From sequence record PQ505080.1: a stretch of 64,000 bases of DNA; one strand, written 5' to 3'. The position numbers and the translations under genes are program-made. Below, one piece after another: positions 33,946 through 36,831 of the stretch (the stretch's first letter is position 1; each line of letters begins with the position of its first letter). The notes under the pieces are model-generated. The model did no database searches. It was not told where the DNA came from and was given only the letters and a program-made list of their open reading frames with translations. The DNA is from Escherichia phage HMD-6.

Positions 33946-34908
33946 TCAGCAACCACAACTTCCGTAGTGCTTAACCCGTTCTATAACCTCCGCTTGCTTA
34001 CCCTTATTGTAAGGACGGGAGTTTGGACTGGATAGATACCCGGATACACGTCTAATCACACTGATTGTTCCCTCTTCATGGTTTCCACACTCTGGGCATA
34101 CAAAGCCTTTAGCTGTTGCACTGAACTCACCAGAGAATCCACACTTAAGACATTTATCCACAGGCTGGTTAATACCAAAATACATAATGTGTTTATATCC
34201 GAAATCAACAAGAGCTTCCAAAGCATCTAAGTTGTTTTTCAGATTTGGTGTCTCTATGTACCCGATGTTGCCACCAGAGGAGATCATAGCAAAACCTTCC
34301 TCATACTTCCACTTATCAAAAGGTGAGCTATTGATCCATACTGGCTGGTGGAAACTATTGGTGAGGTATTCATGCTCGTGCTTCAACACTTCAGGATATT
34401 CACGATCCAGACAGGTTGCAGCCTTATAGCACAAGCTTTCGGAAGGAGTGCCGTACAAGCTGAATGCCAGACCACTTTCTTTTTTGTACCGCTCACAAGC
34501 GTCTTTCATGTGTTGAAGGATTCCAAGAGCTAAGGACTTGTCCCCCTCTCTGCCCAAAATCTGACAGGTTTCATATACACCAATATATCCAATACTTATG
34601 GAAGCATATCCGTCATAGAAGAGTTTATCAATGCTCTCTTCAGGATCCAGGCGAGCAAGAGCTCCTTCACACCACATGATAGGGTTCTGCCCTGCCTTTG
34701 TTCCTTTTAGACGGTTAACCCTTACAAGGTGAGCCTCGTATGCCAAATCCAAATATTCGTCAAGAACTGCAAAGAAATCAACACCTTCCGTTTTAGCTTT
34801 TGCCGCAATCATTGGTAGGTTAAGGCTAACAACACCCAAGTTGAATCTGCCAAGGTATTTCTCCTCGCCTGTTACAGGGTCGCTATATTTCGATAAGAAA
34901 CTTCTACA
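33946..34908 (-). CDS. nrdD: anaerobic ribonucleoside-triphosphate reductase NrdD, exon 2
   Basis: C-terminal glycyl-radical region (RVSGYLSS) and Zn ribbon; exon begins CRSFLS.. directly after intron 3' end GAACATAATG. Confidence 0.8.
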   Translation of the reverse strand, partial: CRSFLSKYSDPVTGEEKYLGRFNLGVVSLNLPMIAAKAKTEGVDFFAVLDEYLDLAYEAHLVRVNRLKGTKAGQNPIMWCEGALARLDPEESIDKLFYDGYASISIGYIGVYETCQILGREGDKSLALGILQHMKDACERYKKESGLAFSLYGTPSESLCYKAATCLDREYPEVLKHEHEYLTNSFHQPVWINSSPFDKWKYEEGFAMISSGGNIGYIETPNLKNNLDALEALVDFGYKHIMYFGINQPVDKCLKCGFSGEFSATAKGFVCPECGNHEEGTISVIRRVSGYLSSPNSRPYNKGKQAEVIERVKHYGSCGC

Positions 34909-35670
34909 CATTATGTTCAAGGTGGTTCGCAAGGCCACCCCCGCACCTTTACGTGCTGCTGCATGTCCCCATGCAGATCAGACTATATCTTCACACTTAG
35001 TGTGTCTACCATTTCGAGTGTCATCAGCTTACACCCTACACCGCTACATTCATCACGGTTAGTCGTTAGGCATTTCGTAACAGAACTCGTAATCATAGTT
35101 ATTAGGTGCACCACGTTTCAGGATAGCAGATATTCTTTTTCTATCTATTCCTAAAACATCAGCACAACATCTCAGACTCTTAAAGTGAATAACCACACCA
35201 GTTAATTTGTGGGTGGCTTTCACCCCGTGACATCTTGTGTAAAAAGCATAACAGTTGTTGTCGTATCCTTCTTGAGTATTGTCTGGGCAAGCTCCCCACT
35301 CAAGGTTGTATACGCTGTTATCTTTCCTGTTGTCACCTTTGTGCTTAACATATGGTAAATTGTCTGGATTTGGTAAAAACGCTTCAGCAACAAGTCTGTG
35401 AACCCTTAGGCAAACAGTCTTTTTGTTCTTGCGTATCCTGACAAGACGGTAACCTGTGTTTATCTCTTCCCACGAATGAATAATTCTTTCATTTTCGTAT
35501 CGGGTGCAATAAACATTGCCCATCTCGTCAATTTCATAACCTTCAAAATCACGAATTTGTTTTCTCATTTCAGGACTCCTCTTAGTCAGGAGTTCTGTTA
35601 CGTTTAGCACGGGATTGTCCGTTCTGGAGTTTCCCCGTTTAGATAGATTTTACATGAGCAGTTATAGTTT
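34909..35670 (-). mobile_element. group I self-splicing intron (T4 td-like, IA2-type) in nrdD
   Basis: On the gene strand: stop codon 3 nt after ..MG, AAATCTATCTAAACGGGGAAAC...CAATCCCGTGCTAAA core, AAGATATAGTC P7 element, 3' end GAACATAATG; contains HNH ORF. Confidence 0.8.
35059..35610 (-). CDS. HNH homing endonuclease (intron-encoded)
   Basis: HRLVAEAFLPN...KHKGDNRKDNSVYNLEW HNH motif; lies wholly inside the nrdD intron. Confidence 0.75.
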   Translation of the reverse strand: MLNVTELLTKRSPEMRKQIRDFEGYEIDEMGNVYCTRYENERIIHSWEEINTGYRLVRIRKNKKTVCLRVHRLVAEAFLPNPDNLPYVKHKGDNRKDNSVYNLEWGACPDNTQEGYDNNCYAFYTRCHGVKATHKLTGVVIHFKSLRCCADVLGIDRKRISAILKRGAPNNYDYEFCYEMPND

Positions 35671-36831
35671 ACCCATGCTTGTTACTTTGCCGTCTGTTGA
35701 ACCTGTCACTTTACGATTTAGCGGAACAGAAACAAAGTCAGGATAAATCCGCTCTGCAGAGCATTCTAGGGCTAATCGTTTCAAATCGTAGTTAGGATCC
35801 CCAGGGTTCATGTTGACACCCTCCTCTAAGAAGAACAGCACTTTAGGGAACACAGGTGTGATCCGTTCTTCACCAAGGCCCATTTTGTGAACTTTCAAGT
35901 AGTTTTTGGTAATCATTCTACCAAAGACCGAAGTATCCAGCCCTAAACTTAATGTGATGAATGGGGTTTGCCCGTTGACAGAAGTTAACGTATTGATTTG
36001 GTAGAGCAAAGTTTGCATACTATCAAACACGTCTTTATCTGTCATTTGCATTGCAACAGTCTCAGCATCTGGCAACCAATGTTCCTGACAAAATTTAAGG
36101 TTCTTCTCGTAGGTTGCTTCAGCATACTGTGCAAGATAATGATCAATATGGCTCATGGTCTGACCACCATATTGAGCACTAGCTACTGCACTAGAGATTT
36201 GGCTAAGGATTGTTGTTGCAACCCCTATTGACTTCGGCTTACTGACATGGGCGTTGCCAATGTTGAATCCGTTTTCCAGCATATCTGGATAATTTACCAA
36301 GCAACAGTTTGTTAACGGGCTGATCAGGTAGTCAAGATCATGCACATGGATGAAGCCTTTGTTGTGCTCTTCGGAGACACGGTCTGGCAGGATCTGTGTT
36401 GATGCAAGATGTTTGCTAAGTATGCCTGCAAGCAGGTCACGATGAGTATGAACATGATTAGTAGGCTTATTTGCGTTTTCTTTTGTAAATTCATCACAAG
36501 TACGATCCAAGAAGCCGCTAATATCTGCAAGCAGTTTTCCACCTGCCTCTCTGTTATTATCTCTTGTCTGTCTATACTGGATGTATTCTCTGGCTGCACA
36601 TTTTAAACCCATATCCATAAGAGCATCTTCAACAAGGATATGGATATTTTTTACAGAGATCGTGCACTGGTCGGTTGGCAGATTGTTGGCAACAACTTCA
36701 TTAACCGCGCAGGCAATCCGGTAAGCTTCTTCTTCAGTATGTCCAGACTCAAGTAAGGCGGACTCTGCCGCCTTGATCACCTTAATTCCGTTATAAAACT
36801 CTTCTCTACCGTCCCGTTTTACAACTTTCAC
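35671..36831 (-). CDS. nrdD: anaerobic ribonucleoside-triphosphate reductase NrdD, exon 1
   Basis: 387-aa N-terminal part ending ..KVTSMG at a GGT|intron junction; ATGA overlap with upstream nrdH. Confidence 0.8.

Follow-up and report, generated by a model that had tools for sequence, protein, structure and literature searches.

A candidate mobile group IA2 intron with an I-HmuI-like HNH reading frame at the catalytic-cysteine codon of nrdD in Escherichia phage HMD-6

The stretch of DNA analysed here (the window) comprises 64 000 nucleotides (nt) of Escherichia phage HMD-6 (sequence record PQ505080.1). Its minus strand carries nrdA, nrdB, a glutaredoxin gene, nrdD and nrdG, and the nrdD region is 98% identical to that of Escherichia phage EPFV3-03/2025 and 92–95% identical to the other listed Vequintavirus (rV5-like) records. 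The nrdD gene is in two pieces, and the 762-nt insert that separates them contains an open reading frame (ORF) resembling HNH endonucleases (Table 1). We read this insert as a mobile, self-splicing group I intron of subgroup IA2, belonging to the family of the phage T4 td, nrdD and nrdB introns, and put the probability of this reading at roughly 0.9. A sequence-only reading of the same DNA had proposed a group I intron like that of T4 td, carrying an HNH homing endonuclease.

Excision of the insert restores nrdD exactly. The exon-1 ORF (36831..35662, minus strand) terminates ...KVTSMG-K-L-stop, reading GGT|AAA CTA TAA across the boundary, i.e. two sense codons and a stop, and the frame restarts 762 nt on, at position 34908, with TGT AGA AGT (CRSFLSKY). 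Cutting out 35670..34909 gives an ORF of 2124 nt, which is the length of the intron-less nrdD of Escherichia coli O157 typing phage 4; the two are identical at 698 of 708 positions (stop included) with no gaps, and the junction reads TSMG|CRSFL in both. The sequence-only reading had the NrdD frame stopping three codons past KVTSMG, resuming 762 nt later at CRSFLSKY and forming a continuous TSMG-CRSFL, and each of these points was borne out. The ligated mRNA would encode a 707-residue NrdD in which the finger-loop motif MG|CR, with its catalytic cysteine, is restored. The C-terminal RVSGY and CxxC...CxxC cysteines, which we take to be the glycyl-radical motif and the Zn-ribbon, respectively, are intact in the excised NrdD. 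The 707-residue product aligns end to end with T4 NrdD (PDB 1H78, E = 1.7e-168), and the junction G387|C388 falls on G289|C290 of the T4 protein. Thus, the insert falls between codons of the most critical motif of the active site, the MGCR motif of class III reductases, which was confirmed from the literature (PMC4493059). Comparison with the intron-less allele gives ratios of non-synonymous to synonymous substitution rates (dN/dS) of 0.009 in exon 1 and 0.041 in exon 2 (0.03 for the exons together), with no frameshifts. The interrupted gene thus remains functional and under strong purifying selection. An intein was considered and rejected, as the reading frame of exon 1 ends at a stop after two codons of insert sequence and the insert itself is structured as RNA.

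The RNA structure was drawn by hand with helices P1, P3, P4, P5, P6, P6a, P7, P7.1, P7.2, P8, P9, P9.1 and P9.2, and was tested on an alignment of eight ORF-deleted introns: that of the window and those of 241Ecol014PP, VEcB, ECGD1, Felixounavirus Si3, T4 td, T4 nrdD and TH58 nrdD. Standard pairs fill 96.9% of the alignment cells, compared with 32–43% when the partners were slid. Compensatory changes, altering both sides of a pair, are present in 34 of the 73 pairs, and none of 500 shuffles reached any of the observed measures. Helices P3, P4, P5, P6, P7 and P8 are each 100% paired, with compensatory changes in five of the six P3 pairs and four of the five P8 pairs, while P7 is invariant over the alignment and identical to that of td. 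P7.1 is 100% paired (two compensatory pairs) and P7.2 is 95.8% paired (three compensatory pairs). In the Michel-Westhof classification, P7.1 and P7.2 lying between P7 and P3′ are the hallmark of subgroup IA2, and the presence of both therefore places the window intron in that subgroup. An unconstrained minimum-free-energy fold of the ORF-deleted RNA recovered all of the drawn helices except the pseudoknotted P3 (z = −4.15).

P1 puts a U.G pair at the 5′ splice site and is 92.9% paired over the eight introns, in three different exon contexts. Its loop carries the P10 guide CUAUA (35667-35663; intron nt 4–8), which pairs with the five bases that open exon 2, UGUAG, and the intron ends ...AUAAUG with the terminal omega-G at 34909. 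P10 covaries with exon 2 between lineages, being CTATA/TGTAG in the window, GCTCTATA/TGTAGAGC in Si3 and GATTGGCA/TGCCGATC in Vibrio phage F90 (also written GCUCUAUA/UGUAGAGC in Si3 and GAUUGGCA/UGCCGAUC in Vibrio phage F90). For exon 2 of the intron-less Vequintavirus alleles (UGCCGGAGU), no comparable complement was found in the guide of the window intron. The conserved td-family elements quoted in the sequence-only reading are all present: AAATCTATCTAAACGGGGAAAC...CAATCCCGTGCTAAA, AAGATATAGTC (34990..34981) and the terminal GAACATAATG (34918..34909) were located in the window and align with the T4 td intron. Exact occurrences of AGATATAGTC in the 64-kb window number two, both inside group I introns, and the motif match is therefore not a matter of chance.

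Table 1. Features of the interrupted nrdD locus (positions in the window)
Feature	Position	Strand	Details
nrdD exon 1	35671..36831	-	387 codons; ends ...KVTSMG; last base is the U of the P1 U.G pair
P1	35653..35677	-	Exon CAUGGGU (35677-35671) pairs with internal guide GCUCAUG (35659-35653)
Group I intron (IA2, T-even type), 762 nt	34909..35670	-	Excision restores nrdD; RF00028; covariation
5′ half of catalytic core	35590..35647	-	P3 5′, P4, P5, P4′, P6 5′, P6a 5′ strand
Putative Shine-Dalgarno hairpin ACUCCU/AGGAGU	35575..35593	-	Would sequester GAGGAG (35581-35576) of the endonuclease ORF
Predicted I-HmuI-like HNH homing endonuclease ORF, 169 amino acids + stop	35059..35568	-	In P6a loop
3′ half of catalytic core	34909..35088	-	P6a 3′ (35088-35076), P6 3′, P7 5′ GACUA (35064-35060), P7.1, P7.2, P3 3′, P8, P7 3′ UAGUC (34985-34981), P9, P9.1, P9.2, terminal omega-G (34909)
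nrdD exon 2	33946..34908	-	Catalytic Cys388 is its first codon; UGUAG (first 5 nt) forms P10; first ~40 nt are an intron-linked variant

The ORF is placed between the strands of P6a, which form a perfect 13-bp stem in the window copy, and its last ~10 codons and stop overlap P6a 3′, P6 3′, J6/7 and P7 5′. The sequence-only reading had described an HNH endonuclease of 183 amino acids. The family assignment stands and the length does not: the GTG at 35610 that begins the longer version is a mechanical ORF call falling inside the P4/P6 core, and translation most likely starts at the ATG at 35568, which is preceded by GAGGAG and gives the 169-residue form annotated in JEP1. The best match to a solved structure is I-HmuI (PDB 1U3E), over the full length (residues 3–166 against 4–172, E = 6e-8), and the ORF also matches PHROG 59, ‘HNH endonuclease’ (E = 4.5e-32). 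It is 100% conserved in five records and has a dN/dS of 0.04 against the copy in VEcB (Justusliebigvirus), indicating that selection maintains the protein. The probable product of the ORF is an I-HmuI-like HNH homing endonuclease under purifying selection, whose activity is predicted from these matches. Stretches of 48–51 nt containing the hairpin over its Shine-Dalgarno sequence (35555-35610) have a ΔG of −12.4 kcal/mol (z = −3.5 to −4.2), and an equivalent hairpin is built from different bases in VEcB (ACUCCC/GGGGGU), which suggests translational masking of the kind seen in T4 intron ORFs. A scan for sigma-70 promoters gave sites no more numerous than in shuffles. Terminator-like sites numbered 6 against 2.3 in shuffles (SD 1.6), none of them informative; the one internal to the intron is the Shine-Dalgarno hairpin seen as its complement on the plus strand.

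Several observations count against the interpretation as a mobile, self-splicing intron. Because the structure was drawn from the window sequence, the measure of cells paired is inflated, although the compensatory counts are not. A scan of the whole window at Rfam gathering thresholds found an intron in the large terminase gene, terL, alone and missed the one in nrdD. In a permissive scan the window copy matched RF00028 with 32.9 bits (E = 2e-6), below the gathering score of 50; the 3′ half (J6/7, P7, P3′, P8, P7′ and P9) aligned well and the 5′ half was forced into the ORF. Taken alone, the 3′ half of the intron scored 28.1 bits as a 5′-truncated match, and the 5′ half gave no Rfam group I match. 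The endonuclease assignment is similarly exposed, as the Pfam matches fall below their cut-offs (HNH_3, 20 bits against 24.8; I-HmuI NUMOD-like, 18.5 against 27), for which reason the PDB and PHROG matches were relied on instead, and a Lys stands in front of the catalytic His in place of the Asp of I-HmuI (Asp74). Lastly, we infer from sequence the splicing chemistry, the activity and cut site of the endonuclease and the translational masking. The low RF00028 score and the missed threshold scan arise because the 510-nt ORF sits in the P6a loop. A natural ORF-less homologue in ECGD1 (Justusliebigvirus), with a core 89.8% identical to that of the window, scored 70.4 bits, above the gathering score, and was the sole match when seven related loci were scanned at the gathering threshold. 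The E-value of the sub-threshold window copy, the score of its ORF-less homologue, the covariation and the minimum-free-energy fold together support the original identification of the insert as a group I intron.

The distribution of the element is patchy. The 762-nt insert is 100% identical in JEP1, YP-6, VB-EcoM-WM and EPFV3, 99.9% identical in vB_EcoM_SYGMH1 and 97% identical in about a dozen more; among Vequintavirus records, 17 carry the intron and at least 93 have an uninterrupted junction. Some 25 ‘Campylobacter phage’ records (MG065644-MG065690, host C. jejuni) also match the window nrdD region, the closest at 92–97% identity, and their host label looks doubtful. Between the window and VEcB, the introns are 86% identical, the exons 68% and the NrdD proteins 67%, and an intron identity so far above that of the exons between subfamilies requires lateral transfer. 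The ..MG|CR.. site is occupied by a related intron in four phage lineages, namely Vequintavirus, Justusliebigvirus, Felixounavirus Si3 and Vibrio phage F90, and the orthologous HNH proteins of the last three are 91, 49 and 50% identical, respectively, to the window ORF product. In the 138-kb Vibrio phage F90 (locus 1-3650), annotation divides nrdD into four pieces or more and shows two HNH ORFs; its downstream interruption lies at MG|CR and has an 8-bp P10.

The exon sequence next to the intron is also distinctive. Mismatches to the intron-less allele peak at the junction, with 17 in its 60-nt bin and 0–10 in the others, most of the divergence falling within the opening ~40 nt of exon 2. This 40-nt variant has 12 substitutions, giving three amino-acid changes, and begins TGT AGA where intron-less alleles have TGC CGG. 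A 41-nt version of it was found at 100% identity in 19 records, comprising the 17 intron carriers and two records of phage V18. V18 (KY683736.1; locus 1780-1820) has the intron-type exon-2 flank without the intron, a junction reading ATGGG-ATA-TGTAG with two extra bases, and an nrdD with many frameshifts; the assembly may be collapsed or of low quality, or the gene may have decayed after imprecise intron loss. Its use as an intron-less allele with an intron-type flank, reflecting precise loss or an immune allele, was set aside as unreliable in view of the frameshifts and the extra junction bases. On the other side of the intron, the bases before ATGGGT are the donor-type ACA AGC in the window and JEP1, and the resident-type ACG AGC in 241Ecol014PP, so that separate events or later recombination must have been involved. 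The ECGD1 intron (locus 2500-2790) is a clean deletion derivative that has lost ~480 nt of the ORF and kept its final codons, ...YDYEFCYEMPND, because these double as P6a 3′, P6 and J6/7. Sporadic presence, lateral transfer and co-conversion of flanks make up a homing signature, and the homing potential put forward in the sequence-only reading is in this way supported by comparative evidence.

The alternative that survives best, although we consider it unlikely, is an intron that splices and is no longer mobile, its ORF product lacking endonuclease activity or acting only as a maturase or DNA-binding protein, and the whole being inherited vertically. The sub-threshold HNH_3 score and the Lys before the catalytic His fit this view, as do the ORF-less derivatives in ECGD1-like phages, which demonstrate that loss of the endonuclease gene does happen in the lineage. 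It is harder to reconcile with an intact ORF of such conservation and low dN/dS, or with introns more alike than their exons between subfamilies and patchy in occurrence within the genus. The catalytic His and Asn of the HNH motif are kept among homologues, and the position before the His varies: the window has Lys, a paralogue Asn and I-HmuI Asp.

A gene in pieces without splicing, in which a free-standing endonuclease cassette divides NrdD into two associating polypeptides, would be a quite different arrangement. Aeromonas phage Aeh1 NrdA is reportedly split in this manner by mobE, its product consisting of associating polypeptides. In favour of such an arrangement, both exon ORFs are under purifying selection, an in-frame ATG that forms the last three bases of the insert has been used by annotators as a start codon, and a non-splicing HNH insertion is reported for the related phage CB7 (PMC7344957). 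Nevertheless, a complete group I core, with 34 compensatory pairs, is formed by the 250 non-coding bases of the insert, and the break lies inside the tip of the MG|CR finger loop. The terminal AACAUAAUG is shared with the td intron and is therefore an intron element rather than a start site, and no Shine-Dalgarno sequence was found upstream of the insert-terminal ATG. We regard this arrangement as very improbable. A pseudogenised nrdD or an assembly artefact, for which the scrambled junction and frameshifted nrdD of V18 provide a precedent, is effectively refuted by the identical insert in four independently sequenced phages, the 97% identical copies in a dozen more and the selected, frameshift-free exons.

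Viewed as a mobile group IA2 intron, the window element can be set beside known systems. It shares the IA2 core of the T4 td intron (I-TevI) at 67% identity, with J3/4-P4-P6 and J6/7-P7 near-identical, P7.1 and P7.2 in both, an identical P9 hairpin and terminal GAACAUAAUG, and an ORF likewise looped out of P6. The td intron differs in having an extra P2 segment after P1, which the other aligned introns, including that of the window, lack, in its host gene (thymidylate synthase) and in its endonuclease, I-TevI being GIY-YIG by annotation and that of the window HNH. The T-even nrdD (sunY) intron with I-TevII interrupts the same host gene, also lacks P2 and has the P7.1 loop GAUGAAUGUA in common with the window. 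The guide GCUCAUGUAAAA is common to the T-even nrdD introns and the window, with GCUCAUG identical and followed by UAAAA. Core identity to the window is 68% for the T4 nrdD intron and 75% for the Mosigvirus TH58 nrdD intron. The 3′ tail of the window intron is td-like. Thus, the earlier description ‘td-like’ is right at the level of the family; in detail, the higher identity to TH58 nrdD, the lack of P2 and the guide shared with T4 nrdD tell against it. The T4 nrdD intron has its GIY-YIG ORF in the 3′ P9 region, unlike the HNH ORF in P6a of the window, and it is inserted at Tyr180, ~110 codons upstream of MG|CR, so that the window site cannot be T4's own.

A further nrdD intron, which the window lacks, is present in JEP1 (locus 1904-2700) and phiWec196; it is 797 nt long, has a different 177-residue HNH ORF and lies at SVNG|QTPF. 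It was considered as an occupant of the T4 site and rejected, being 10 codons downstream. In 241Ecol014PP, an insert of ~257 nt with no annotated ORF occupies the same nrdD region as this second JEP1 intron. There are at least three nrdD intron sites across phages: T4 Tyr180, SVNG|QTPF and MG|CR.

The match to I-HmuI, of the Bacillus phage SPO1 DNA-polymerase intron, spans the HNH motif and the C-terminal helix-turn-helix (NUMOD-like) part at ~24% identity; the host gene and phage family differ, as does the residue at Asp74. I-HmuI is a nicking enzyme that reads mainly 3′-exon sequence and is sensitive to exon-2 differences, and such reading would fit the exon-2 linkage of the window intron. 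Orthologous nrdD introns are those of VEcB, ECGD1 (ORF-less), the Felixounavirus phages Si3 and UAB_Phi87, and Vibrio phage F90, which have the same MG|CR site and core as the window and orthologous HNH proteins, in phages whose NrdD proteins are 67 and 36% identical to that of the window. In GenBank, ECGD1 nrdD is a joined coding sequence and the JEP1 ORF is labelled ‘HNH homing endonuclease, Phage intron’. It is textbook knowledge that ribonucleotide reductase genes of phages harbour group I introns encoding HNH endonucleases. The RB3/T4 nrdB intron with I-TevIII likewise belongs to the T-even group IA introns, interrupts a ribonucleotide reductase gene and carries an HNH-family endonuclease (by annotation; PMC1865063), its gene being nrdB and not nrdD; a blastp comparison of truncated T4 I-TevIII with the window ORF gave no similarity at E = 1e-3. 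Phage ribonucleotide reductase genes are those most often interrupted by group I introns (PMC3653736), reverse transcription PCR demonstrated splicing of the HNH-containing introns that the related Certrevirus CB7 has in its terL, DNA polymerase, nrdA and nrdB genes (PMC7344957), and a homing endonuclease alongside a split nrdD has been described for Felix O1-like phages (PMC4837284). In the literature searched, no paper characterising the Vequintavirus nrdD intron was found.

The intron in terL is a second, ORF-less group I intron of the window (62819-63136, plus strand, 318 nt, RF00028 81.4 bits), inserted right after the CFDE motif (CFDEG|TQFEW), which we take to be Walker B. The terL and nrdD introns are nearly identical in the P7′-P9 segment (AAGATATAGTCTGGTCTGCATGGAGACATGCAGC in terL). 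Six tRNA genes (60477-61286, plus strand), two of them near the Rfam threshold, lie ~1.1 kb upstream of the terL start. Introns have been reported for rV5, in terL only (PMC3606486).

A consistent mechanism can be proposed for the nrdD intron. The last seven bases of exon 1 would pair with the internal guide to form P1, with the U.G pair at the splice site, and the P3–P9 core would assemble around the td-identical guanosine site in P7, with the endonuclease ORF looped out of P6a. Free guanosine would attack after U35671, and exon 1 would then attack after the terminal G at 34909 while P10 (CUAUA:UGUAG) holds exon 2. The 169-residue endonuclease would be translated from the ATG at 35568, its Shine-Dalgarno sequence being masked by the hairpin. 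In mixed infections, the enzyme would nick or cut intron-less nrdD alleles near the insertion site, and recombinational repair would copy in the intron together with adjacent exon sequence.

The consequences are in part practical. The nrdD gene of the window should be annotated as one joined coding sequence (707 amino acids) with an intron-encoded 169-residue endonuclease, where most GenBank relatives have two annotated ‘nrdD’ fragments instead. The intron-less alleles, the introns with an endonuclease gene and the endonuclease-deleted intron, with the MG|CR site occupied in four lineages, are a clean natural series for the study of homing, and the insertion point divides the best-conserved motif of class III reductases, the tip of the catalytic-cysteine finger loop. 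The engineering of rV5-like therapeutic phages could gain a site-specific nickase or cutter in the endonuclease. Current understanding is unchanged. The intron adds an unremarkable new member to the T-even IA2 family, paired with an I-HmuI-like HNH endonuclease, and GenBank already contains identical copies. A more speculative idea, which we hold only tentatively, is that the 40-nt exon-2 variant is more than a passive scar of co-conversion and is a doubly selected module for immunity and splicing, supplying the P10 pairing and at the same time destroying the 3′-exon recognition sequence of the intron's own endonuclease. If so, intron carriers would be protected while attacking intron-less rV5-like competitors in mixed infections, and marker exclusion would be expected around the ribonucleotide reductase cluster.

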